This document shows positions 4,013 to 35,785 of a stretch of 38,422 nt of DNA, piece after piece. This stretch comes from a virus. Its lineage: Duplodnaviria > Heunggongvirae > Uroviricota > Caudoviricetes. The notes beneath the pieces are model-generated. The model was not told the DNA's origin. It ran no database searches and saw only the letters and a list, made by a program, of their open reading frames with translations. The stretch covers positions 1 to 38,422 of the IMG/VR virus record IMGVR_UViG_2925919700_000005; one strand, 5' to 3'. Position 1 is the stretch's first letter. Every line of letters starts with the position of its first letter. Both the position numbers and the translations under genes were made by a program.

Positions 4013-4240
4013 AATTTAAACTAGATGATACTAGATGGTCTTAGAAGGAATTAACTAGTTTGCTCGCTCGCTTCGCTCACTCTCAAACGTCTGCGACGCC
4101 ACTGCGTGGCATCGAGAATCACTTCTGAAAGGATTTTCTTGAAAGGGATTTTAAACTAGTTACTAACTGATTCTAGAAAGATAGTAATAATCACTTTGAA
4201 GATAATAGTAGTTAACTGGTTACTAGATGATTCTAGATCA
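4013..4240. repeat. Three copies of a ~17-25 bp ACTAGATGAT(A/T)CTAGA-type direct repeat flanking a GC-rich structured core
   Basis: ACTAGATGATACTAGATGG (4020-4038), AACTAGTTACTAACTGATTCTAGAAAG (~4153-4180), AACTGGTTACTAGATGATTCTAGATCA (~4212-4238); GC-rich inverted repeats in 3961-4110. Confidence 0.6.
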
Positions 4241-4266
4241 CTTTAATGATCATGAAAGGTATTGGT

Positions 4267-4296
4267 TATCCCTTCGGGATTGCAACCTTCGGTTGC
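4267..4296 (+). other. Two tandem UUCG-tetraloop hairpins
   Basis: ATCCC-TTCG-GGAT and GCAACC-TTCG-GTTGC back to back. Confidence 0.5.
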
Positions 4297-4500
4297 TAAA
4301 TTGCTTCCGGATTATTATTTCTCCAAAAGAAAGATTCTTATATTCTAAAGATACTTCTTCGTTTTGATGATGATTTAATCAAAATCTATGAAGGAGGCGA
4401 AGCCGACTGAATACCAATTCCTTTCAAATTAGACAAAAATTTCTCGTTATAAATAATAGTGAACTTACTTTGATTCACTTTCTTTTAGAGGATTTCCACT

Positions 4501-4953
4501 ATGATCAATACTAAAACTCCTTTCATTCTTCTGGGTCTGAACCATGATGATAATCTGGCTATGATGCATGTTTTCGCTAATCGTGGTTATAACATCATTC
4601 GTCATTCCGAAGACTCCAATTTCTCAACTGCTTTCTATGCTCTTAAACGTAATGGTCGCCCTACGGTGATCGTAGACTGCTTTACTGATGAAGGTCGTGA
4701 ACAATACAACAACATTCCGGCAATTATTGTTCGTGATGACCTGCCGTTTGATGTTCGTGAATATGACGTTGATTTAGGCTCTTACTATGGGATCGCCGAT
4801 CTTGACCAGATTATGGCTGATTATGGTAAACAACCCGCTCAGGAAGCCCCAGAACACGATGAACAAGACGAAGATGACGACGACTACACACCAATCTGTT
4901 TCTCTTCTCACGGTGGCTTCTACGGTTACGATGAAGGCTTAGATATGCTGTAA
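4501..4953 (+). CDS. hypothetical acidic protein (150 aa); N-terminal pattern faintly resembles a receiver/flavodoxin-like fold
   Basis: GAGGA SD; CGTTATAAATAATAGTGA box 40 nt upstream; C-terminal run EHDEQDEDDDDY; alternating hydrophobic strands FILLG / YNIIRH / VIVDC / PAIIV. Confidence 0.6.
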   Translation: MINTKTPFILLGLNHDDNLAMMHVFANRGYNIIRHSEDSNFSTAFYALKRNGRPTVIVDCFTDEGREQYNNIPAIIVRDDLPFDVREYDVDLGSYYGIADLDQIMADYGKQPAQEAPEHDEQDEDDDDYTPICFSSHGGFYGYDEGLDML

Positions 4954-4975
4954 TTTAGGTCAACCCTTTGGCGTC

Positions 4976-5017
4976 TTGTCAAGGGGTATTGACAAAATTT
5001 TCTGACTTTTTTATGAT
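4976..5017 (+). promoter_or_regulatory. Sigma70-like promoter (TTGACA, 17 bp spacer, TATGAT) overlapped by an inverted repeat TTGTCAA-N6-TTGACAA
   Basis: -35 TTGACA at 4989-4994, -10 TATGAT at 5012-5017; inverted TTGTCAA at 4976-4982; further TTGACA-like boxes at 5026 and 5045. Confidence 0.45.
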
Positions 5018-5073
5018 TATCGCACTTGACAATTTTGAACCTATTTGACCTAGATTTGTAAAGAGGATGTAAC

Positions 5074-5406
5074 ATGAAAGAATTTACCATCACTAAATCC
5101 CTGTATGACTGGACTGTTAAAATCTCCGGCAAAACCGTTTCTGTAAGCCCTAGCCATGTAGAAAATGATTGGGGCGTATCCCGTGAAACTATCTCCCGTA
5201 GTATGCATGTTCCGTTTGATCTGATGTCCTTAACTGGTATTCATGCAATGCTGGAAGTTCGCGAACAATTCGAAGCTGGTAATCACAATGCGACTCCAGT
5301 TAGCAATCACCTTCTTACTAATGAAGAACGTGAAATCATCGAAAACTGGCGTTATGAATATGCGATTCCTTATTATGAAGAAGACCAAGTAGAAATCGAT
5401 TGGTAA
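5074..5406 (+). CDS. hypothetical protein (110 aa)
   Basis: AGAGGA SD; compact ORF; no recognisable family. Confidence 0.6.
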   Translation: MKEFTITKSLYDWTVKISGKTVSVSPSHVENDWGVSRETISRSMHVPFDLMSLTGIHAMLEVREQFEAGNHNATPVSNHLLTNEEREIIENWRYEYAIPYYEEDQVEIDW

Positions 5407-5502
5407 TAAATTTCTATCATAAATAAAAATGTTCCGGTGGTGATGCCGGAACTAGGAGGACCAATATCATTATCGCAAAACCGTTTAAGGGGAATTACTA
5501 CT

Positions 5503-6333
5503 ATGAATACTGTTACTGCTATGAATACTGCTGTTAAAACTGCTTCCGTGTCTCTGGTTGTTGATAACACCAAACCGCTGACCATGTCTACTTTGCAGAT
5601 CGCGCAAATGATGGATCGCGTAGACCGCCACCGTGATATTAAGCGAACTGTTGACCGTCTCGTTTCTTCCGGTGTAATTGTCCACACGCCAACGGCGCGC
5701 GAACAACTGGAAGATAAATTTGGTCGTTCTCGTGAAATTGAAGTTTATCTTCTTGATGAACGTTCGTCATATATTGTTGTTGCTCAAATTTCGCCAGAAT
5801 TTACCGCTTTTATCGTTGATGAATGGAAGCGACTGAAAGAAGAAAATGAAAAACTTCGCTCTACTCCGGTTAACCCGTATGCAGACTTTGAAGAAACCGA
5901 TTGGATCGAACTGGCATTAAAGAAAACTCGCGAAAATAAAAAGCTGATTGAACTTCATGTTCGCAAATCCGTAGATAGCCATTCAATGACCCGTCTGTTA
6001 GGAGCTAAAAAGGGCGCTACGAAGGTTAAAGAAGCACTGACGGCCTTGCGTACTGCTGGCTACATTGAGCGCGTCTACGATGAAAATAACAAGCCGTGTG
6101 GGTATGTTGCTAATGACTCTTCTCTGTCTTTCTGCCGCATGAATGCTCACTACCAACTTGAGTTTACTGTTGATGTTCTTCCTGTGCTGGTTGAATTGGG
6201 TGTTCTGGAAGAAGAACAAAAAGCAACTCTGAATCTTCCTAAGCCGAACAACACTATTCTGATTCAAAATAAAGCTGCTAAACAGATTCGTGAATCAGGT
6301 AACGTAATTTCCCTTGTTGATTTTGGGATCTGA
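5503..6333 (+). CDS. Rha-family phage regulatory protein / antirepressor-like
   Basis: N-terminal segment LTMSTLQIAQMMDRVDRHRDIKRTVDRL matches the Rha-type DNA-binding pattern as I recall it; start chosen at ATG 5503 (AAGGGG SD) rather than the track's GTG 5437. Confidence 0.55.
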   Translation: MNTVTAMNTAVKTASVSLVVDNTKPLTMSTLQIAQMMDRVDRHRDIKRTVDRLVSSGVIVHTPTAREQLEDKFGRSREIEVYLLDERSSYIVVAQISPEFTAFIVDEWKRLKEENEKLRSTPVNPYADFEETDWIELALKKTRENKKLIELHVRKSVDSHSMTRLLGAKKGATKVKEALTALRTAGYIERVYDENNKPCGYVANDSSLSFCRMNAHYQLEFTVDVLPVLVELGVLEEEQKATLNLPKPNNTILIQNKAAKQIRESGNVISLVDFGI

Positions 6334-6339
6334 TTAATC

Positions 6340-6374
6340 GCCCGGCGCATAATTGCGCTGGGCTTTTTGTTTTT
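6340..6374 (+). terminator. Rho-independent terminator
   Basis: GCCCGGCGC-ATAATT-GCGCTGGGC (one G-U pair) followed by TTTTTGTTTTT. Confidence 0.7.
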
Positions 6375-6469
6375 ATAGATAACAGCATTTTTGCTGGCAT
6401 CTATAGACCAGTCAAGATTTGGACTCAGCTTCGAGATGAGCGCAGTTTTGCGCCGATTGTTTTACATAC

Positions 6470-6493
6470 AAAAAAGCCACTCCGAAGAGTGGC
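6470..6493 (-). terminator. Rho-independent terminator for the leftward gene pair
   Basis: GCCACTC-CGAA-GAGTGGC preceded by A6 on plus (T-run on minus). Confidence 0.65.
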
Positions 6494-6508
6494 AAAGAGA
6501 ATCAAAAC

Positions 6509-6742
6509 TCAAAAACCTGTTGCTTCTACGATCTGACCATCACCGATCTGAACATAGAATTTAATGTCTAACTTCTTAATATTCTTATAGAATTGGGCGA
6601 TTGAGATCCCATGTTCACTAAGAATCTGTTCTTTCGCTTCCTTACCACGATCCGCTGTATAATAAGCGTAGGCAATATCAGCCATTTGTTCAGCGTTAAA
6701 ACGGGCAGGACGACCGCGAGTAGCTTTAGTAGTCATAGTCAT
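6509..6742 (-). CDS. small basic protein with RGRP (AT-hook-like) motif; putative DNA-binding
   Basis: GGAGA SD; N-terminus MTMTTKATRGRPARF. Confidence 0.5.
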   Translation of the reverse strand: MTMTTKATRGRPARFNAEQMADIAYAYYTADRGKEAKEQILSEHGISIAQFYKNIKKLDIKFYVQIGDGQIVEATGF

Positions 6743-6770
6743 TTCTCCAAATTAAAGTGAATGTTCACCT

Positions 6771-7373
6771 TTATTTAGAGGACTTACATTTTATCGGAAA
6801 AAGTTCTCCATCGTCAATACTCATAAAGAACTCTGCCTTAATCCCGTACTTCTTCAACCGTGAATAGTATGTACCCCGACTTATATCAACCTTGCGAAGC
6901 ACTTCAAAGAACCCTTTAGGATCGTTGTAATAGTGGCTATAACGCACGTTAGCGAGTTCAACGAATAGTTCCCTTGTATCACCATAGCCTTTCTTGAAAG
7001 CCTCGTTACGATAGCGTGTAATTGCGTGATTCAATCTCTTCTGTTTCAACACTTCTCGGATCGGCTTCCACTGCAACCGATAGATAGGACCGTCATCCAC
7101 TCGATAATAACGCTTGATATCAAAATCAAACCAATCTCGGACTCTCCGAAACTCTGTATGTGATGTTCTATGCTTCTTAAAGAAGTTGTGAACGTCTGTA
7201 TAACCATTATCGCGGTAAAACTCTATTAAAATCTCTTTCGCTTCCTCACGACTAAAGCCAGATGTTGTGTAGTCGGTTTTTAAATGCTTATGCTTAACTG
7301 GTAAACGATATTCATGATCGGTACAAGACAAGGCTAATTCTAATTCATCTCTTTGTTGCTGATTAATTAGCAT
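6771..7373 (-). CDS. hypothetical protein (200 aa), transcribed divergently from the terminase large subunit gene
   Basis: AAGGGGGG SD upstream of the ATG (minus strand); basic and Tyr/Arg-rich; no recognisable family. Confidence 0.6.
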   Translation of the reverse strand: MLINQQQRDELELALSCTDHEYRLPVKHKHLKTDYTTSGFSREEAKEILIEFYRDNGYTDVHNFFKKHRTSHTEFRRVRDWFDFDIKRYYRVDDGPIYRLQWKPIREVLKQKRLNHAITRYRNEAFKKGYGDTRELFVELANVRYSHYYNDPKGFFEVLRKVDISRGTYYSRLKKYGIKAEFFMSIDDGELFPIKCKSSK

Positions 7374-7458
7374 ACAACCCCCTTTAATTAATACCCGTAT
7401 TTATCAAAATATCAACAATTTAATAAATACCTTCATATTTCGTAATGAGGGTAATTAC

Positions 7459-9363
7459 ATGAAACTGATTTCAAATAAGGCAAAATTAAAAAAGATTCTT
7501 AAAAATATCTCTGCGGCAATTCGCCCACCTAAAACGATGAAACCTAGCGAATGGGTAGAGGCTAATGTAGTTGCAACCGATGGTGTTAAAGCCGGATCGC
7601 TAATTAAATTGCATCCCTTCCAACGTGGAATGATGGACGCGATCACCGAAGACCGTAGAAAAATTGTGTTTAAATGTTCGGCACAGTTGGGTAAGACCAT
7701 GATTCTTAACGGAATTATCTTCCATCGGATCGCGAGTAACCCTACTAATATTGGGGTGTTGCAAAGTAACGTTAGAGAACTAAATTCTTGGATCGCTGGT
7801 AAGGTGAAGCCAGTATTAGAGGCAACGCCAGAATTAAAGGCGATGATCACCGACAAATCAGACCGTAATGCCGTTAACAACTCATCGATTATTCAGCTTC
7901 GTAACGGATCATTCATGTATTTCATGTCGCTGAACAGTCCATCACACTTGCGCGGTAAAACACTCCCTTTGATTATTCTTGATGAAGTTGATGCGGCTGA
8001 TGAGTCAGACGAAGGGAACCCGATCCAGCTAGCGGAACAACGCGCAACCACTTTCGGGGAAGATGCAAGGATCGTAATTGCTTCCACTCCAACCGCTCGT
8101 GATGGGGCGATTAACCAACAATGGGAACTCTCGGATAAGAGAAAATATCATGTCGTTTGCCAGCATTGCGGACACAAGCACGTAATGGAATGGAGTAACG
8201 TACATTTCGATTGGCATACGATTAACGGTAAATCATTACCCAACCCAGATACAGCCGTTTACCGTTGCCCTGAATGTGAAACCGACTGGACCGAAGGGGA
8301 TCGCCTACGTGCTGTTGCTCAGGGAGAATGGGTCGCCACCGAACCAAACGCGGAAGTAATCGGTTTTCATGCTAACCGCCTTATGTCTCCGTTTAGTTCT
8401 ATCCGTGCGTGTGTGGTGGACTTTGCTGATAGCTACGCGAATATGTCGCTGGCAACGTTCTATAATGTGGTGCTCGGTGAAACCTTCGATGATCTTAACG
8501 AAGACCGCACAGCCGACGAATTAGAAACGCTGAAAACTGATATTAGCCTAGACAATATTCCTGATGATGTACTGGCTCTGGTTGGTGGAGTTGACCAGCA
8601 AAAAGACCGTCTGGAATCTACCTTGCTGGGTATTTCTCGTAAAGGGCTATGCGTAGTTGATCACCGATCATTCTATGATGTGAACTGCGAACGCCACGAA
8701 TCACCAGCATATAACCAGCTTTACAACTTCCTGAAAGCGAAATTCTATACCCGATCCGGTCAACGAATCCCGATGTTATCTGCTTTCGTGGACTCATCGA
8801 ACGGACGAGCTACAAACGTGATCTATCGATTCTGCACACAATGGCAAAACCTAACAGCCATTAAAGGGGCAAGCAATGTTGATGCTCCAATCCTTCCGGT
8901 CAAGGACACAAGAACGGGTGGTTTTACTCTTAAAATTCTGGGCGTAAACAACCTTAAGACGATGATCCGTGAAATGATTAACCGGAACTTGAGAGACAGC
9001 GATCCTCATACGGTCTTCCAGATTGGTGACGTTCCTGATGACTATTGCGAGCAATTGTTATCTGAACAGTTGAAACGGCAGGGTAATACCACACGTTGGG
9101 TAAAAGTTGGTCAGCAACGAAACGAGGCTCTCGACTGCCTGGCTTACTCCTATGCTGCTTCTCGCCATGTACTCAATAAAATGTCATGGGAAAAACTCGA
9201 AGCCATCAAAGATAGTTTGAACCGTGAACCAGAAGAACCCGTAGAAGCTCCTAAATCGCAATCTAACGAGCAAATAGAAGAAACTAAGCCAATCACACGA
9301 CCGCAACGTCAAAACATCGCCAGACGTCCAAATAGAGGCCGTAGCTGGGTAACATCGTTCTAA
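7459..9363 (+). CDS. terminase large subunit (lambda gpA-like ATPase/nuclease)
   Basis: Walker A CSAQLGKT and Walker B LPLIILDEVD; Cys/His cluster CQHCGH...CPEC; 634 aa, immediately upstream of the portal gene. Confidence 0.9.
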   Translation: MKLISNKAKLKKILKNISAAIRPPKTMKPSEWVEANVVATDGVKAGSLIKLHPFQRGMMDAITEDRRKIVFKCSAQLGKTMILNGIIFHRIASNPTNIGVLQSNVRELNSWIAGKVKPVLEATPELKAMITDKSDRNAVNNSSIIQLRNGSFMYFMSLNSPSHLRGKTLPLIILDEVDAADESDEGNPIQLAEQRATTFGEDARIVIASTPTARDGAINQQWELSDKRKYHVVCQHCGHKHVMEWSNVHFDWHTINGKSLPNPDTAVYRCPECETDWTEGDRLRAVAQGEWVATEPNAEVIGFHANRLMSPFSSIRACVVDFADSYANMSLATFYNVVLGETFDDLNEDRTADELETLKTDISLDNIPDDVLALVGGVDQQKDRLESTLLGISRKGLCVVDHRSFYDVNCERHESPAYNQLYNFLKAKFYTRSGQRIPMLSAFVDSSNGRATNVIYRFCTQWQNLTAIKGASNVDAPILPVKDTRTGGFTLKILGVNNLKTMIREMINRNLRDSDPHTVFQIGDVPDDYCEQLLSEQLKRQGNTTRWVKVGQQRNEALDCLAYSYAASRHVLNKMSWEKLEAIKDSLNREPEEPVEAPKSQSNEQIEETKPITRPQRQNIARRPNRGRSWVTSF

Positions 9364-11452: not shown

Positions 11453-11497
11453 TAACCAACGGGGGCGCAATGCCCCCAATTAATTAAAGGTGATTAA

Positions 11498-13507
11498 ATG
11501 CTTAAATTTCGCCGCGATCTTAACGGTTACGGTGGAGTTATTAACGAAGGGCATAACGATCAATACGAGTTTGAAATTGCTTTCTCAAGTACACAGCCTT
11601 ATCAGCGCCAATTTTGGGATGAGCAAAATCAAGAAATGGTGGTATTAGATGAAATTCTGGTACATACACCGGAAGCGGTTGATCTGTCTCGTCTGAATAA
11701 TAACGCTCCGTTGCTGTTCAATCATAATTTCGATAATCACATTGGTGTCGTTTGTAACGCTCGAATCGATGCGGATAACGTAGGCCGTGCTCTGGTTAAA
11801 TTCTCTAAGCATGGGACTTTGGCTAATGATATTCGTAATAAAGTCATTGAAGGTACGATGGAAAAAATTTCTGTCGGTTATGACATTAAAGAATATCACA
11901 TCGACTACGCTAAATCGCAACTCATTGTTTCTAAATGGATTCCTCACGAAATTTCGTGGGTCACGGTGCCAGCGGACGATTCGGTCGGTTTAAATCGCTC
12001 TCTAAATACTATCACAGTTAATTTGGAGGCTAAACGCGATATGACTAAAGAACAAATCGAACAAGTTAAAGACGAAGAAGAAAAAGAAGTCGCTCAGGTT
12101 GAAGAAACTCCGGTAGAAGAAAATAAAGAATCGGAAGTTGAAGAAACTCAAGAGCGCCAAGTTGAAGAGAATGAAGAAAATGAAAATCTCGAAGACGGAA
12201 AAGACGCTGAACATCCTGAAAGTGTTGATGATGATAGTTCAACTGTTCGGGAAGCAGAAGAAATAAAAGAAGAACGTGAAGCTGCTCCGGTTGAAGAAGA
12301 AAAAATCGAAGAAGTGGCTGAACGTTCCGAAGAAGACGAAGAAGAAATTCGCGAAATTGCACGCGAACTAAATATTGATGACGAAGAATTGAAACGCGCA
12401 TTGGCAAATAAAGAAATGACGCCGGAAGCATTCCGCACTAAGGCACTAAATAACATTACCAATGCTCAACGTAATAACGAACAAATTAAGGACTCTAAAA
12501 TGGAAAAAACTTTTGACCTGAACAACGTAATTCGCTCTCTGGTAGATGGTGAAGCTCTGGGTGCTAACGAAGCCGAGTTTTCTGCAATGGCTGCTACTGC
12601 AACTATGCAGCGTGGTCGTGCTGCTCGTGGTGGCTCTGTATTCGTTCCGGCTGCTGCTATGCGTGCTGCTGCTGCTGGTAACACCAAAGCCGATCTGACT
12701 GCTATCACCGACGAAAAACTGATGACTGAATCCTACATCGAAATGCTGATGCCGGAATCTGTTCTGGGTCGTCTGGGTGTGACTGTTTACAGTGGCTTGA
12801 ATGCTCCGACCGCTATTCCAAAAATGACTAAATCCAGCGTTGATGCTTTCGGCTTCGTTGATGAAAACGGTGCTGCGCCGGAAAGCAAAGCTGAATTTGC
12901 GAACGTGAAACTGTCTCCTAAGACTTTCGCTGGTGGCAACCCGATTAGCCGTCAGTCTCTGAAAACCGTTCCGGGTATCGCTACCCTGATCACTGACCAC
13001 ATTAACAAAGCTGTTCGTATCAAACTGGAACAACTGATTCTGTCTGACAAAGAAAATGCTCGTGGTCCGGCTGGTCTGGTTAAACAACTGGTAGACGGTG
13101 GTCGCGTAGAGAAGAAAGCTGCTTTCTCTTACAAAGATTTCCTGAAAGAAATTGCTAAACTGACCGACGCTGGCGTTCCTGCTCAGGCGATCAAGTTTGC
13201 GATGAGCGGTGCAACTGCTGCCGAACTGGAATCTACCCTGAAAGATAACGGCGTTTCCGGTTATATCATCGAAAACGGCAAACTGGCTGGTTACGAAGTA
13301 GTTACTTCTGGTGTTATTCCGGCAGATCACATCGTTCTGGGTGACTTCTCCGGCATCACTATCGGTGAGTGGGGCGGTCTGGAACTGGATATGGACGACA
13401 CTACCTACCGTGCACAGTCTGCTATCGTTCCGCGTATCTGGGTAGATCTGGATTATGTTGTTACTCAGCCGGAAGCTCTGAAAGTTCTTCACCTCTCCGC
13501 TGAATGA
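11498..13507 (+). CDS. prohead protease - scaffold-like acidic linker - major capsid protein fusion (HK97-type)
   Basis: N-terminal ~170 aa carry an S78-protease-like motif HEISWVTVPADD; aa ~190-330 are an E/K-rich coiled coil; the C-terminal ~330 aa look like an HK97-fold capsid protein; terminator follows. Confidence 0.75.
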   Translation: MLKFRRDLNGYGGVINEGHNDQYEFEIAFSSTQPYQRQFWDEQNQEMVVLDEILVHTPEAVDLSRLNNNAPLLFNHNFDNHIGVVCNARIDADNVGRALVKFSKHGTLANDIRNKVIEGTMEKISVGYDIKEYHIDYAKSQLIVSKWIPHEISWVTVPADDSVGLNRSLNTITVNLEAKRDMTKEQIEQVKDEEEKEVAQVEETPVEENKESEVEETQERQVEENEENENLEDGKDAEHPESVDDDSSTVREAEEIKEEREAAPVEEEKIEEVAERSEEDEEEIREIARELNIDDEELKRALANKEMTPEAFRTKALNNITNAQRNNEQIKDSKMEKTFDLNNVIRSLVDGEALGANEAEFSAMAATATMQRGRAARGGSVFVPAAAMRAAAAGNTKADLTAITDEKLMTESYIEMLMPESVLGRLGVTVYSGLNAPTAIPKMTKSSVDAFGFVDENGAAPESKAEFANVKLSPKTFAGGNPISRQSLKTVPGIATLITDHINKAVRIKLEQLILSDKENARGPAGLVKQLVDGGRVEKKAAFSYKDFLKEIAKLTDAGVPAQAIKFAMSGATAAELESTLKDNGVSGYIIENGKLAGYEVVTSGVIPADHIVLGDFSGITIGEWGGLELDMDDTTYRAQSAIVPRIWVDLDYVVTQPEALKVLHLSAE

Positions 13508-13647
13508 AATAACGTAGAACCTTCTGTACCTTCCCCCGATTTGGGGGAAGAAAATCTGATTCCATCTCAGGAAGAAGAATCCCAGACGGTTACGGCGAAA
13601 GCCCCAGCTAAAAAGGTGGGACGTCCACCGAAAGCAAAATAATAATT

Positions 13648-13676
13648 AGCCCTGCCTAACGGTGGGGCTTTTTTGT
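13648..13676 (+). terminator. Rho-independent terminator after the capsid gene
   Basis: AGCCCTGCC-TAAC-GGTGGGGCT stem followed by TTTTTTG. Confidence 0.7.
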
Positions 13677-13704
13677 ATGTAAATACTCCATAAAGGGGGT
13701 AACT

Positions 13705-13995
13705 ATGTTCAAATTATCAGAATCACAATTATCAAGAATGTTCCGAAGTGCTCCTGTATTTTCGGTGGAAGGTGGTAAATCAATTCGTGCTTATCATGAA
13801 ATTACTACTACCGACGAACAAGGGGTAATGACAGAAACAGAGTTTCTATTTTGTCGTGAGGGAGACTTAAAGCAAGGTGATATTGTCATTGTAGAAAATC
13901 AGCGTTTCAAAGTTCAATACGTTAAGCGCAATGGTGACAATACAACTGATTGCTTTATCACTCTGGCAGGGGGTACACATGCTCGCTACCGTTAA
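13705..13995 (+). CDS. putative head-tail connector/adaptor protein (96 aa)
   Basis: AAAGGGGGTAACT-ATG; position directly after the capsid gene; functional call is by position only. Confidence 0.5.
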   Translation: MFKLSESQLSRMFRSAPVFSVEGGKSIRAYHEITTTDEQGVMTETEFLFCREGDLKQGDIVIVENQRFKVQYVKRNGDNTTDCFITLAGGTHARYR

Positions 13996-14401
13996 TAACA
14001 TGCCTAGACTGAAAATCAAACGCGCCTTGCAAGATATTATCGAACAAGATTTAGGTCTGGCTTTAAACGTAGAACAAACTCAGCAAGGCTTTAGTGATGA
14101 CGTGGTTTGTTGGATCACCGGAATGAATGAGACTTACACGCGTGTTCGTGGCGGTAATGCAATGCAAGCTGAATGTGTTATCGAAATGCAATTGTATTCT
14201 CAGATTCATGAAACCAAAATTCATGAGGGTATTTGCCAGATAATCCAGATTCAGCCGGATAACCCACGATTTAAAGATTTGGGCTTCTCTATTTCAGATA
14301 TCACTCCAGTAGCTTCTAATACCGATTATGACGATGATTCTAGTGATGGGGGTATCGTTGGGACACTTAGCCTTAAATTTTCTTATCTAGCGCGTTTTTA
14401 A
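13979..14401 (+). CDS. putative head-tail joining / tail terminator-like protein (140 aa)
   Basis: ATG 13979 has an AGGGGG SD and overlaps the upstream stop (coupling); the track's 13931 start is in the same frame. Confidence 0.5.
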   Translation: MLATVNNMPRLKIKRALQDIIEQDLGLALNVEQTQQGFSDDVVCWITGMNETYTRVRGGNAMQAECVIEMQLYSQIHETKIHEGICQIIQIQPDNPRFKDLGFSISDITPVASNTDYDDDSSDGGIVGTLSLKFSYLARF

Positions 14402-14410
14402 GGGGTAATA

Positions 14411-15244
14411 ATGAATATTACACAAGATAACTTAGACATTTTCACGGGGTCGCATGTTGAAGTCTCCGTGTCTACTATGGTGGATAACCAGCCGGATTTT
14501 TTCGATCCTGCATTTAGTCCTATCGAGAACATCGCAGCATTCCCGACGATAACCGAATCCACAGAGATCCAGACGTTAGAAGAGTATGATCAGGACGCTA
14601 CGGGTAAACTTGCTGGCTATCGTAAACTTGAATCAACTACGTTAGTAGTAAACCGTGTTCTGGATGACGAACATCAAGACATGTTGATGAAAGCGGTGAA
14701 TGATAAAACTCCTTTACGCTTTCGTATGTTCTATGTTGTGAACTCTGGTTACAGTGCTGCTAACACAGGTTACTACGTCATCTTTGACGCTTTCGTCTCG
14801 TCACATAAAACAAAATCCGGCGATAACAAAGCTGTAACACTGGAATTTAAACTTGAACCAGATGGCGGGATTTTGGCAAGGGGTATTGCTACCGAAGGCC
14901 GGATCTTACGTCAGGGTGATTTTGGTATTGGTGCTGGTGTAAATCCATTCACTGGTCCGATTGATAGCGAAGCATTAGCCGGAAACCGTTTCGTAACTTA
15001 TCAGGGATCAAGCGCATCTAATCCATTTAGTGCTGATACTTCACTAATTCACGTTCAACCTAATGAAGATGGTGGATGGCAATTAACTTGCACCGCTTCC
15101 GGCGCACCACGTTTACGAGTTCGCACAGTCCAGAAAGACGGTAATTCGGGATGGGTGAAAGTGTATTCCACAGAAGAAAAACCGACACCAGCCGAGATTG
15201 AAGCCGTTTCTATCCATGACCGGATCGATTTCGGGGAATACTGA
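14411..15244 (+). CDS. virion structural protein (277 aa); C-terminus shares a KPTPAEI motif with the tail fibre
   Basis: AAGGGGTAATA-ATG; C-terminal EEKPTPAEIEAVS versus fibre DKPTPAEIGAYS; hairpin and T-rich tract follow. Confidence 0.55.
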   Translation: MNITQDNLDIFTGSHVEVSVSTMVDNQPDFFDPAFSPIENIAAFPTITESTEIQTLEEYDQDATGKLAGYRKLESTTLVVNRVLDDEHQDMLMKAVNDKTPLRFRMFYVVNSGYSAANTGYYVIFDAFVSSHKTKSGDNKAVTLEFKLEPDGGILARGIATEGRILRQGDFGIGAGVNPFTGPIDSEALAGNRFVTYQGSSASNPFSADTSLIHVQPNEDGGWQLTCTASGAPRLRVRTVQKDGNSGWVKVYSTEEKPTPAEIEAVSIHDRIDFGEY

Positions 15245-15317
15245 TTGCTTCTCTAAATAAAACATGACGCGGGAGGTTAACGCCTCCCTTATTCCTGTTT
15301 TATAGTGAGGTGATTCG

Positions 15318-19838: not shown

Positions 19839-20312
19839 ATGACTACTAAATTTGATATTTTCTCTGGTGGCCTCGTTGGTCTGTTTCTGCAAGAAGACGT
19901 AAGCAATAAAGACCTTGATGCTGAAACCTATCTGGAAATCCCAGAATGCGCAGCGTTCCCGGAAACTGGTGTAGAACGTTCTACGATCGATGTTCCTAAC
20001 TTCTCTGGTGCTTATAACCGTAAGCTGGTTGGTCGTATGTCTGTACCGGATATCGAACTTTCGATCAACTACATGCCGGGTAACGAAGTACACGAAAAAC
20101 TGATTAAAGCAACCGAAGACGGTAAGCGCGTACAGCTTAAAATTGCTTACTACATCGATGCTACGAAAAAATCTGGTGTACATATCGCTTATAACGGCTT
20201 CCTGTCTAAAACTACCATGACTGGTGGTGAGGATGCTGTAGTAGGCCGTACCTTCACCTTTGTAGTAGATGGTGCTCCGGTTAAACAAGCTGTTTTCCAG
20301 AAAGTCGTCTAA
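19839..20312 (+). CDS. major tail tube protein (lambda gpV N-domain-like)
   Basis: Lies directly before the chaperone and tape measure genes; IELSINYMPGN resembles lambda V TSFTLAWMPGE (from memory); AAGGAA SD; strong terminator follows. Confidence 0.6.
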   Translation: MTTKFDIFSGGLVGLFLQEDVSNKDLDAETYLEIPECAAFPETGVERSTIDVPNFSGAYNRKLVGRMSVPDIELSINYMPGNEVHEKLIKATEDGKRVQLKIAYYIDATKKSGVHIAYNGFLSKTTMTGGEDAVVGRTFTFVVDGAPVKQAVFQKVV

Positions 20313-20615: not shown

Positions 20616-21944
20616 CTGAGAGATCCCCTCATAATTTCCCCAAAACGTAACCATGTGTGAATAGATTTTGAGTAAGCAGGGTTGCAGCCACGAGTGAGTC
20701 TTCCCTTGTTATTGTGTAGCCAGAATGCCGCAAAACTTCCATGCCTAAGCGAACTGTTGAGAGTACGTTTCGATTTCTGACTGTGTTAGCCTGGAAGTGC
20801 TTGTCCCAACCTTGTTTCTGAGCATGAACGCCCGCAAGCCAACATGTTAGTTGAAGCATCAGGGCGATTAGCAGCATGATATCAAAACGCTCTGAGCTGC
20901 TCGTTCGGCTATGGCGTAGGCCTAGTCCGTAGGCAGGACTTTTCAAGTCTCGGAAGGTTTCTTCAATCTGCATTCGCTTCGAATAGATATTAACAAGTTG
21001 TTTGGGTGTTCGAATTTCAACAGGTAAGTTAGTTGCTAGAATCCATGGCTCCTTTGCCGACGCTGAGTAGATTTTAGGTGACGGGTGGTGACAATGAGTC
21101 CGTGTCGAGCGCTGATTTTTTCGGCCTTTAGAGCGAGATTTATACAATAGAATTTGGCATGAGATTGGATTGCTTTTAGTCAGCCTCTTATAGCCTAAAG
21201 TCTTTGAGTGACTAGATGACATATCATGTAAGTTGCTGATAGGTTTCCAGTTTTCCGCTCCTAGGTCTGCATATTGTACTTTTCCTCTTACTCGACTTAA
21301 CCAGTACCAACCCAGCTTCTCAACGGATTTATACCATGGCACTTTAAAGCCAGCATCACTGACAATGAGCGGTGTGGTGTTACTCGGTAGAATGCTCGCA
21401 AGGTCGGCTAGAAATTGGTCATGAGCTTTCTTTGAACATTGCTCTGAAAGCGGGAACGCTTTCTCATAAAGAGTAACAGAACGACCGTGTAGTGCGACTG
21501 AAGCTCGCAATACCATAAGCCGTTTTTGCTCACGGATATCAGACCAGTCAACAAGTACAATGGGCATCGTATTGCCCGAACAGATAAAGCTAGCATGCCA
21601 ACGGTATACAGCGAGTCGCTCTTTGTGGAGGTGACGATTACCTAACAATCGGTCGATTCGTTTGATGTTATGTTTTGTTCTCGCTTTGGTTGGCAGGTTA
21701 CGGCCAAGTTCGGTAAGAGTGAGAGTTTTACAGTCAAGTAAGGCGTGGCAAGCCAACGTTAAGCTGTTGAGTCGTTTTAAGTGTAATTCGGGGCAGAATT
21801 GGTAAAGAGAGTCGTGTAAAATATCGAGTTCGCACATTTTGTTGTCTGATTATTGATTTTTGGCGAAACCATTTGATCATATGACAAGATGTGTATCTAC
21901 CTTAACTTAATGATTTTGATAAAAATCATTAGGGGATTCATCAG
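20616..21944 (-). mobile_element. IS10 insertion sequence, complete (1329 bp)
   Basis: Ends CTGAGAGATCCCCTCATAATTTCCCC (inside end, 20616) and ...AAAATCATTAGGGGATTCATCAG (outside end, 21944); length 1329 bp; encodes the 402-aa IS10 transposase. Confidence 0.97.
20629..21837 (-). CDS. IS10 transposase
   Basis: 402-aa translation MCELDILHDSLYQFCPELHLKRL...HGYVLGKL matches the IS10/Tn10 transposase as I recall it; start is 107 bp inside the outside end. Confidence 0.97.
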   Translation of the reverse strand: MCELDILHDSLYQFCPELHLKRLNSLTLACHALLDCKTLTLTELGRNLPTKARTKHNIKRIDRLLGNRHLHKERLAVYRWHASFICSGNTMPIVLVDWSDIREQKRLMVLRASVALHGRSVTLYEKAFPLSEQCSKKAHDQFLADLASILPSNTTPLIVSDAGFKVPWYKSVEKLGWYWLSRVRGKVQYADLGAENWKPISNLHDMSSSHSKTLGYKRLTKSNPISCQILLYKSRSKGRKNQRSTRTHCHHPSPKIYSASAKEPWILATNLPVEIRTPKQLVNIYSKRMQIEETFRDLKSPAYGLGLRHSRTSSSERFDIMLLIALMLQLTCWLAGVHAQKQGWDKHFQANTVRNRNVLSTVRLGMEVLRHSGYTITREDSLVAATLLTQNLFTHGYVLGKL

Positions 21945-34455: not shown

Positions 34456-34609
34456 ATAGACCTCACTTTTTTAACTTATAGGCATAACCTCAATATGGTT
34501 GGTTTGGGATTTAGGGTCGCGTATTATACACATTCAGATAGAGAATGCAATAGTAAGACAATTTTCTCTAATAAATAGTAGTGAGCTTATTATTTTAGAG
34601 GAAACTACT

Positions 34610-35785
34610 ATGAAACTTGCTTACGCTGCCGAAATTCCTTTTGTTAAGAAAACTCGCGGTTTATCGCCGGAAGAGTACCAACAACGAATCATCGCTAAAC
34701 TGGAACCTGCTTTCGTATTTGGTGGATTTATCCTACCGTGGAAGGGTAATCACACTTACTTTCGAATCTACAATTTAGATACACAAGAATATAAGGACTA
34801 CAAATTACGCAAACTGGAAGATACTAACGGGGGTGAGTTACTCCAGACTGAAAAGGCTGTATGGTTGAAAATGGAATCTCGTTGTAATGAGAAGGGAAAG
34901 AAATTCCTCGGATGGCAAGGAGAATGGAAAGGGCGCAACAAGACAAAATCCCGTGTTTTGTGCCCTGAACACAATCAAATCATGACGCCATCTCTATTAC
35001 ATGCTCTCAAAGATGATTTCGATTTTGATTGCAAAATCTGTATGGCTGAAAAATCCCAACGGGTAAGAAGTGGCAAGACTTTTGATGAAGTTATTAAGGA
35101 CAAAGAGACAATCATCAATGCACGTTGCGAGAGTACGCCTTACACCTTCAAAGGATTCATCATAAACACCCCACACCTAAAGGATGTTAAATTTAAAACC
35201 TATTGCAAGACACATAATCACGAATGGGAATCTCATTTAAGATGTGCTGATTCTTTCACTTGTCCGCTTTGCATTAAAGACCAACTGGTGCAACTGTCTA
35301 ACCGGACTTATCAGGGTAAGGCTAGTTTCTATATTCAATTATTAGATGACAAATTTATTAAATTTGGAATCACTACCCGGAAACCAGAAGAACGAATGAG
35401 AGAGCAAACCAGAAAGAGCAACTTCACTCACCGCTTAATCTTTACTCATGAGTTTGAGGATGGTTGGAAAGCCGTTGATTTAGAGCATGAAGTAAAACAA
35501 CGCTTCAAGACTCATGCAGCACCCTACAAAGATTTCAAGGATGGATGGTCGGAAACTCTGACTATTGATGAGTTACCACACTTACAGCAACTGGTTTATG
35601 ACTACCTAACCAATCAACCGGACGAGGCTAATATGTGGGTATCCCAGAAAGATGTATTTGATGACGATACATTCAAGCTACATACTCACTTCTACGGCAT
35701 CAATAAACCGGAATTTTTCTGTATTGATGACGACAGTCCTGATTTAATGGATGAATACTTTAATACTCTCTTAGACGCTGTCTAA
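34610..35785 (+). CDS. multi-zinc-finger protein with C-terminal GIY-YIG/T5orf172-like domain
   Basis: Several C/H clusters (CPEHN...CKIC; CKTHNHEWESHLRCADSFTCPLC) then FYIQLLDDKFIKFGITTRKPEERMREQ; TAATAAATAGTAGTGAG box 25 nt upstream; start set at ATG 34610 (track start is TTG 34499). Confidence 0.55.
   Translation: MKLAYAAEIPFVKKTRGLSPEEYQQRIIAKLEPAFVFGGFILPWKGNHTYFRIYNLDTQEYKDYKLRKLEDTNGGELLQTEKAVWLKMESRCNEKGKKFLGWQGEWKGRNKTKSRVLCPEHNQIMTPSLLHALKDDFDFDCKICMAEKSQRVRSGKTFDEVIKDKETIINARCESTPYTFKGFIINTPHLKDVKFKTYCKTHNHEWESHLRCADSFTCPLCIKDQLVQLSNRTYQGKASFYIQLLDDKFIKFGITTRKPEERMREQTRKSNFTHRLIFTHEFEDGWKAVDLEHEVKQRFKTHAAPYKDFKDGWSETLTIDELPHLQQLVYDYLTNQPDEANMWVSQKDVFDDDTFKLHTHFYGINKPEFFCIDDDSPDLMDEYFNTLLDAV

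Follow-up and report, generated by a model that had tools for sequence, protein, structure and literature searches.

The capsid gene of an Escherichia coli prophage raises the question of where its translation ends. The prophage is IMG/VR virus record IMGVR_UViG_2925919700_000005 (Caudoviricetes), which was analysed over its whole length of 38,422 nucleotides (nt) and is called the window below. One gene encodes its prohead protease, an acidic linker and an HK97-fold major capsid protein. The gene stops at a TGA, and the same frame stays open beyond it. A sequence-only reading of the window had proposed that occasional readthrough of this stop could give an extended capsid subunit. After a comparison with related loci, we lean on balance towards selected low-level UGA readthrough, which would add a disordered, acidic-then-basic tail to a minority of capsid subunits. 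The proposal gains from an invariant TGA-A, a kept frame, tandem stops at its end and the contrast with relatives outside the group; it finds no support in amino-acid-level constraint on the extension.

The frame is open for exactly 44 codons past the TGA, as had been stated, and closes with TAA TAA (Table 1). The caution that a stretch this short can be open by chance was justified: 9.5% of shuffled 132-nt sequences stay open, and of the long open frames in the window, 13% have 44 or more sense codons behind them. The significance of the extension therefore derives from the comparison with relatives only. The compared set comprises 36 IMG/VR contigs, 13 metagenome contigs, 11 complete E. coli genomes and the window, about 61 loci with 32 nucleotide haplotypes. 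Frame 0 is open in every relative, over 27, 28, 33, 42, 43, 44 or 45 codons, and no stop interrupts it in the 32 haplotypes. At least six length changes (48, 27, 3, 3, 3 and 3 nt) have occurred, all of them multiples of three (roughly, (1/3)^6 = 0.0014), and at least 62 substitution events have created no stop at all (P about 0.065, likewise rough). Frames +1 and +2 are closed in all 29 haplotypes tested. The extension carries no annotation in RefSeq.

The stop codon and its context are also retained. The TGA is followed by A in all of these loci; the majority hexanucleotide in relatives is TGAACT, and the window has TGAAAT. In bacteriophage Qbeta, UGAACU is the readthrough hexanucleotide, and 3-5% of ribosomes read through it by means of the normal Trp-tRNA (PMC13517186, PMC7026636). 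The codons around the stop vary, and the one just before it is GAA, GAC or GAG in the window and its relatives. Two very different capsid C-termini, ...KVLHISAE in proteins of 667-671 amino acids and ...TVVQKKVD in those of 690, precede the same cassette. The choice of TGA is unusual, both for the prophage (TAA ends 25 of its 28 plus-strand open reading frames, ORFs) and for more distant relatives of the capsid gene (TAA in 45 of 46). Among six characterised phages with a fused gene, five (Arya, ep3, phiHAP-1, VP882 and PPpW-3) have TAA and then a terminator hairpin within about 10-25 nt; the fused gene of the sixth, R4C, ends with TGA TGA and overlaps the next gene. An in-frame extension is absent from all six. 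No tRNA gene was found within the window, and hence no phage-encoded suppressor tRNA. Two hallmarks of programmed readthrough are thus seen at this locus, a leaky UGA whose permissive 3' context is conserved in relatives and a downstream frame-0 reading frame preserved through substitutions and indels; a third, a protein-coding substitution signature in the extension, is absent.

The RNA beyond the stop is predicted to be structured. An 8-bp GC hairpin 22 nt past the stop had been noticed before, and we recovered it with arms CTTCCCCC and GGGGGAAG (13530-13537/13543-13550), a GATTT loop and a free energy of -15.9 kcal/mol (z = -3.8). This hairpin 1 is enclosed by a conserved predicted structure that starts closer to the stop. 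Its outer helix pairs 13518-21 with 13588-91 and 13523-26 with 13583-86, and a further inner hairpin pairs 13555-57 with 13576-78 and 13560-63 with 13570-73. The objection that the hairpin lies too far from the stop for a recoding signal does not really hold: hairpin 1 is part of a larger predicted element that begins 10 nt past the TGA, and the spacing is therefore within the range of known readthrough stimulators, which begin at +12 and +13 (PMC13517186). Positions 13495-13680 (186 nt) fold with -63.4 kcal/mol, against -45.6 +/- 4.2 for shuffled sequences (z = -4.2). Substitutions avoid the paired positions, with 3 of 52 paired columns variable against 24 of 50 unpaired ones (Fisher p = 1e-6), and the 27-nt deletion takes out exactly the inner hairpin. 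The short class of extensions (27 or 28 codons) differs in sequence and forms an 11-bp hairpin of -14.9 kcal/mol, likewise 10 nt past the TGA. Its five haplotypes show one compensatory and two pair-preserving changes, which is not significant, as 104 of 500 shuffles reach as much. Hairpin 2, near the end of the long extensions, is kept as GGCGG...CCGCC at two loci (L099 and L115) and is absent from the other tail variants. A search of the region against Rfam gave no family, the selenocysteine insertion sequence (SECIS) included, and returned weak chance matches to unrelated families only. The conserved predicted structure is likely a modulator of readthrough.

From these elements we suggest the following course of expression. 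Translation from 11498 would produce protease, acidic scaffold and capsid in one chain, and most capsid protein would be started separately at ATG 12500. Nearly all ribosomes would end at UGA 13505. By analogy with Qbeta, about 1-5% of them might accept Trp-tRNA at UGA-A, read the 44 codons and end at TAA TAA. The extended protein would then consist of the capsid protein, a Trp and about 4.9 kDa of flexible tail that begins acidic and ends Lys/Arg-rich, with VLHLSAEWNNVEPSVPSPDLGEENLIPSQEEESQTVTAK as its junction peptide. At a Qbeta-like level of 3-5%, a T=7 head of approximately 415 subunits would contain about 12-20 with the tail. HK97-fold C-termini lie outside in T7, P22 and encapsulins, and the tail would most likely be exposed on the outer surface of the capsid. 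Right at the TGA the codon adaptation index (CAI) falls from 0.74 to 0.32 (Sharp and Li weights; absolute values are approximate), which fits rare translation of the extension.

The encoded peptide is short and simple. Its first 28 residues are acidic (net charge -7) and its last 16 basic (net +6), ending in the window with ...KAPAKKVGRPPKAK, and the acidic-then-basic composition is retained across unrelated cassettes. The basic tail had been likened to an AT-hook. Four variants of it were found, KKVGRPPKAK, KKQRKTKE, KKERKTKAK and KRGRKPKE, and a GRP or RGRKP core is present in just two of them (VGRPPKAK and KRGRKPKE); the core is not conserved, and the AT-hook label is therefore unsupported. 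The extension has no Pfam match.

Several observations weigh against readthrough. Purifying selection at the amino-acid level was not detected: substitutions are distributed 18:22:22 over the three codon positions, with no third-position excess; single-step changes comprise 7 synonymous and 13 non-synonymous ones, where 24% synonymous are expected; and the replacement score of -0.23, against -0.35 expected, is no better than in the other frames. The A-tract ahead of the terminator may in part account for the lysine-rich end. Among about 5.8 billion clustered database proteins, none has the extension joined to the capsid protein through a sense codon, and a profile search with the extension matched one 33-amino-acid TTG-called ORF and no fused form. 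The haplotypes are related, mosaic and recombining, which makes the frame probabilities rough. Compensatory changes were not found in the long class or in the outer helix, and the covariation of the short class falls short of significance. Its only compensatory change is supplied by L030/L122 (IMGVR_UViG_2877285697_000006), whose capsid domain shifts reading frame between start and stop, either by a frameshift or by a sequencing error. Finally, the strongest visible constraint in the region is on RNA pairing, and a structured 3' untranslated region (UTR) would therefore explain much of the conservation without translation.

Such a purely structural role is the alternative that survives best, and we consider it unlikely though deserving of serious weight. 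Under it, the 140 nt between TGA and terminator would be an untranslated element, for example with hairpins that stabilise the abundant capsid mRNA or with a processing site, and the frame would be incidental. It accommodates the excess stability of the fold, the near-invariant stems with variable loops, the deletion that matches one hairpin and the pair-preserving changes in hairpin 2 and in the short-class hairpin. The lack of amino-acid-level selection and the low codon adaptation also agree with it, and hairpins directly past the capsid stop are common in relatives. What it leaves unexplained is why every length change is a multiple of three, why frame 0 remains free of stops in all haplotypes, why a phage that prefers TAA has neither TAA nor TAG here, why tandem stops close the frame, and why the structure stands exactly 10 nt from the UGA in both sequence classes. 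The combination of leaky stop, structure, preserved frame and tandem stops fits selected readthrough better than an untranslated region.

The position of the terminator suggests a second alternative. The terminator (-15.5 kcal/mol, nearly invariant in relatives) begins 2 nt past the tandem stops and 140 nt past the TGA, and it thus sits after the extension rather than after the TGA. Between it and 15277 no promoter-like site was found, and the genes at 13705-15244 therefore depend on transcription that passes the terminator. A terminator-like hairpin (15271-15306) overlaps the sole plus-strand promoter-like site, which lies just ahead of the tail-fibre gene (15318). When a terminator in E. coli follows a stop codon by a few bp, it is repressed almost completely, and an efficiency of about 0.9 is regained beyond 30 bp (PMC4824070). 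A ribosome halted at 13640-13645 would sit over the 5' arm of the stem, while one at the TGA, 140 nt upstream, would not interfere, and readthrough could in this way tune transcription of the head-completion and tail genes. One version, which we hold to be doubtful, is a transcription rheostat. How strongly the downstream structural genes are expressed relative to the capsid would then depend on the leakiness of the stop, which would itself respond to the RNA structure 10 nt downstream and to the physiology of the cell (Trp-tRNA and RF2 levels), and the peptide would be a by-product. As a full replacement for a peptide function, the claim would be that arrival of the ribosome is what is selected: the readthrough ribosome masks the 5' arm and polymerase continues into the head-tail and tail genes. 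This we regard as improbable. The distances agree with it, the extension ending 2-5 nt short of the terminator stem, and it would account for an open frame with an unconstrained peptide. In a sister clade, too, tails in the -1 frame stop 5-7 nt before terminators; those fused in frame stop 14-23 nt before, and the -1-frame tail of phage DCP80 does not conform, ending 26 nt before its terminator. A further difficulty is quantitative, as only the leading ribosome counts and a few percent of readthrough adds little to a terminator leak of about 10%. The composition kept across cassettes hints at a role of the peptide itself, and antitermination of the late operon may make the terminator irrelevant. 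Pfam searches identified no antiterminator or late regulator among the early ORFs of the window.

The sister clade, whose capsid domain is about 42% identical, has short Ala/Lys-rich tails. At some loci they are fused in frame (L035, L037, L066, L142 and L143); at others (L033/L045, L036, L034, L144 and L148, the last being DCP80) they are encoded in the -1 frame and run to a point just short of the terminator. Candidate slippery heptamers, A_AAA_AAG (L144) and A_AAA_AAA (L036), stand ahead of such tails, a few codons before the TAA. These -1-frame tails may be extensions made by frameshifting or transcriptional slippage, and with the small sample the pattern is suggestive only. L034 and L144 have in common an 8-bp hairpin 5-6 nt past the stop, with pair-preserving differences. 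L148 corresponds to GenBank PQ671644.1 positions 4194-8753, "Escherichia phage DCP80", which is classified as a 141-kb T4-like phage (Straboviridae) and has a lambda-type portal and a fused protease-capsid module near its left end; the entry may be a chimeric assembly or contain prophage contamination. The in-frame tails in these relatives allow for the extension to be a decaying remnant, an ancestral in-frame tail truncated by a nonsense mutation to TGA with its downstream codons drifting, and the neutral-looking substitutions would agree. We find this very improbable: drift should bring frameshifts and stops, and none was seen in the 32 haplotypes despite the substitutions and indels recorded. 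Conservation extends, moreover, to the TGA-A context and to the RNA structure.

An independent small gene, selenocysteine insertion or in-frame hopping is barely credible: the one 33-amino-acid "hypothetical protein" (MGEENLIPPQ...) in nr is called from a TTG in DLGEE, whereas no start codon is conserved there, and this TTG falls within hairpin 1 (loop and 3' arm), lacks a ribosome-binding site, is TCG in L091 and L154, is absent from the 27/28-codon class and is TTA at the only comparable position of L001; the UGA with its hairpin is superficially SECIS-like, but has no Rfam match, its GAUUU and GAAA loops lack fdhF-type features and the hairpin differs between classes; and hopping from the GAA before the stop to the GAA at extension codon 4 is not available to loci with GAC or GAG before the stop. 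A minus-strand gene was also considered, and no ORF of at least 40 amino acids covers 13508-13700 on that strand.

The gene upstream of the stop is a single ORF of 669 codons, and the sequence-only reading described it correctly as a fusion of an S78-type prohead protease and an HK97-like capsid domain. Both domains match Pfam above curated cut-offs. The protease match has 39.4 bits (cut-off 21, E 8.6e-10) and covers profile positions 23-149 of 165. His76 (LLFNHN) and Ser125 (KISVGY), assigned by eye from the family motifs, are presumably the catalytic pair; the translation continues after KISVGY with EISWVTVPAD. The capsid match has 92.7 bits (cut-off 24.2). The nearest solved relative of the capsid portion is the capsid of roseophage R4C (PDB 8GTA, E 1.4e-24, 253 residues aligned). 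That structure holds only the 268-amino-acid mature chain, present in 415 copies per virion and derived from a fused gene (R4C gene 006), and residue 11 of this chain aligns with amino acid 410 of the window protein. The linker had been called E/K-rich: it is indeed rich in glutamate (48 E), but strongly acidic (net charge -36) and not balanced between E and K.

This architecture has been met before. The PHROG families "major head protein" and "major head and protease protein" cover the protein end to end (phrog_617 at amino acids 23-664, E 2e-91; phrog_4523, the latter family, E 8.4e-37), both ends of the protein are covered by tblastn in at least 30 phages, and the same layout is already annotated in VP882, phiHAP-1, ep3, Arya, PPpW-3, RcCronus and R4C. 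In actinophages, "Major capsid protease fusion" is a standard label. As judged from these matches, the fusion gene is real but of an ordinary, already known type. Separate protease and capsid genes in homologues, which had been offered as grounds for rejecting the earlier interpretation, would overturn nothing here. Proteins identical to the fusion are found in many E. coli genomes, where those with 100% identity are named "phage major capsid protein"; strain FDAARGOS_1267 (NZ_CP069522) is one carrier of an identical capsid protein. DNA matches occur in 53 of 5,426 complete genomes; a curated phage collection contains no near-identical phage by DNA, and a scan of species-representative genomes gave 5 distant loci only, none of the close clade.

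The fusion gene probably encodes several nested products. Its CAI rises from 0.32 in the protease part, similar to most phage genes, to the window maximum in the capsid portion, with the step at about 12500, and the same two-fold step is present in enterobacterial relatives. Most capsid protein is likely initiated internally, because equal translation of both halves would give no such step. A ribosome-binding site and in-frame ATG are located at this junction, and AAGGA with ATG is retained there although the codons differ, both in close relatives and in clades with only about 35% identity; the lysine codon of AAGGA is always AAG, the rarer one. The observation of internal start signals extends, besides the window, to the loci L003, L019, L025, L046, L048, L049 and L078. 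The capsid protein is thus probably made mostly from the start at 12500. Lambda, HSV-1 and HFTV1 provide known examples of in-frame internal starts whose C-terminal product is the more abundant one. In the nesting of the lambda C/Nu3 type the internal product is a scaffold, whereas here, to judge from the CAI step and the conserved ribosome-binding sites, it would be the capsid protein itself, for which we found no description in the literature checked.

Table 1. Features at and around the end of the fused protease-capsid gene, in coordinates of the window.
Feature	Coordinates	Strand	Basis
Protease/acidic linker/HK97-fold major capsid fusion ORF, 669 amino acids, TGA end	11498..13507	+	ORF list, Pfam, PHROG
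Peptidase_S78 (HK97 gp4-type) domain, amino acids 40-162	11615..11983	+	Pfam PF04586
Glu-rich acidic linker, presumed scaffold, amino acids 171-334	12008..12499	+	composition
Second in-frame ATG 12041 (M182) after GGAGG 12025-12029, inside linker	12025..12043	+	scan for ribosome-binding site and ATG
Putative internal ribosome-binding site TAAGGA (12487-12492), 7-nt spacer, in-frame ATG 12500 (M335)	12487..12502	+	conservation, CAI step
Capsid portion, 335 amino acids, with Phage_capsid domain at amino acids 411-664	12500..13504	+	Pfam PF05065
Putative leaky-stop context TGA AAT	13505..13510	+	conservation in relatives
In-frame extension, 44 codons, NNVEPSVPSPDLGEENLIPSQEEESQTVTAKAPAKKVGRPPKAK	13508..13639	+	sequence, relatives
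Conserved predicted RNA structure, 10 nt past TGA	13518..13591	+	single-sequence and alignment folds agree
Small GGC-GAAA-GCC hairpin, in long and short sequence classes	13594..13603	+	folds
Hairpin 2, GGTGG-GACGT-CCACC, inside VGRPP codons	13615..13629	+	-8.1 kcal/mol
Tandem stops TAA TAA closing the extension	13640..13645	+	TAATAA or TGATAA in every haplotype
Intrinsic terminator: 9-bp stem (13648-56/13661-69), 4-nt loop, T6	13648..13675	+	terminator scan

Some other features of the window were noted. Ahead of the fusion gene, in the gap that follows the portal stop codon, is a GC-rich hairpin (11460-11478), and the capsid gene is thus bracketed by stable hairpins. In the tail gene cluster, an ORF for an insertion sequence (IS)-type DDE transposase (20629-21837, minus strand; PF01609, E 1.5e-24) directly follows the tail-tube gene (19839-20312, CAI 0.61), and this prophage copy may be disrupted. 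A 428-amino-acid ORF (34499-35785) combines a CapR homology domain (PF21817) with MUG113 (PF13455) and may be a regulator or a defence-related prophage gene.

If readthrough takes place, the locus would be the first in a tailed double-stranded DNA phage, within the literature searched, where a capsid protein is extended by reading through a stop codon; in the limited set checked, we found no description of stop-codon readthrough in a tailed-phage capsid gene. The locus would also supply a candidate bacterial RNA structure that stimulates readthrough, a kind not established so far, and a natural system for studying the role of minor extended capsid subunits in E. coli prophages that are easily induced and mutated. 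The geometry also opens a new regulatory idea to direct testing, namely that readthrough masks a terminator. If the region is a structured 3' UTR only, it is a minor curiosity.

For the upstream gene, the closest parallels are the fused and nested head genes of R4C, VP882, phiHAP-1, ep3, lambda (C/Nu3) and HK97 (gp4 and the gp5 delta domain); what is shared with the fused genes is an S78 protease, a charged linker and an HK97-fold capsid in one ORF. For the arrangement of stop and terminator, the parallel is attenuation and the tR2 study of Li et al. 2016: the extension stop lies 2-5 nt from the terminator stem, in the range of near-full repression. The difference is that this stop would be reached here only through readthrough of an upstream UGA, a combination not described before. 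The type II readthrough signals of alphaviruses and coltiviruses share a UGA, a short spacer and an extended conserved stem-loop, represented in the window by a 10-nt spacer and a predicted structure; they differ in acting on eukaryotic ribosomes and in their UGA-C context. To our knowledge, no bacterial structure-stimulated readthrough signal is known.

Among capsid extensions made by recoding, those by frameshift are known in T7, T3, A2, A118 and PSA, and it has been argued that chance decides between the recoding routes (-1, +1 or in frame) (PMC5009743). The in-frame and -1-frame tails of the sister clade parallel this variety. As proposed for the locus, T7 (10A/10B), T3, Lactobacillus phage A2 (gp5A/5B) and the Listeria phages A118, A500 and PSA obtain a minor, C-terminally extended product beside the major one by recoding close to the 3' end of one capsid gene. 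The window contains no slippery heptamer and its extension is in frame 0, which separates it from -1 extensions of the T7 10A/10B type; the route here would be frame-0 stop readthrough, and in place of an Ig-like domain there is a short extension of low complexity. Qbeta A1 shares with the proposed mechanism an E. coli translation system, a capsid gene that ends with UGA-A (UGAACU in most relatives of the locus) and a C-terminal extension that only a minority of subunits would carry. Qbeta is, however, a small single-stranded RNA phage with an unrelated coat fold, and its extension of about 200 amino acids is folded and essential for infectivity, whereas the extensions described here have 27-45 amino acids, are probably disordered and poorly constrained, and are attached to an HK97-fold protein in a tailed double-stranded DNA prophage with a terminator behind them. 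Were the readthrough real, the locus would be an intermediate between Qbeta A1, made by readthrough, and T7 10B, made by frameshift.

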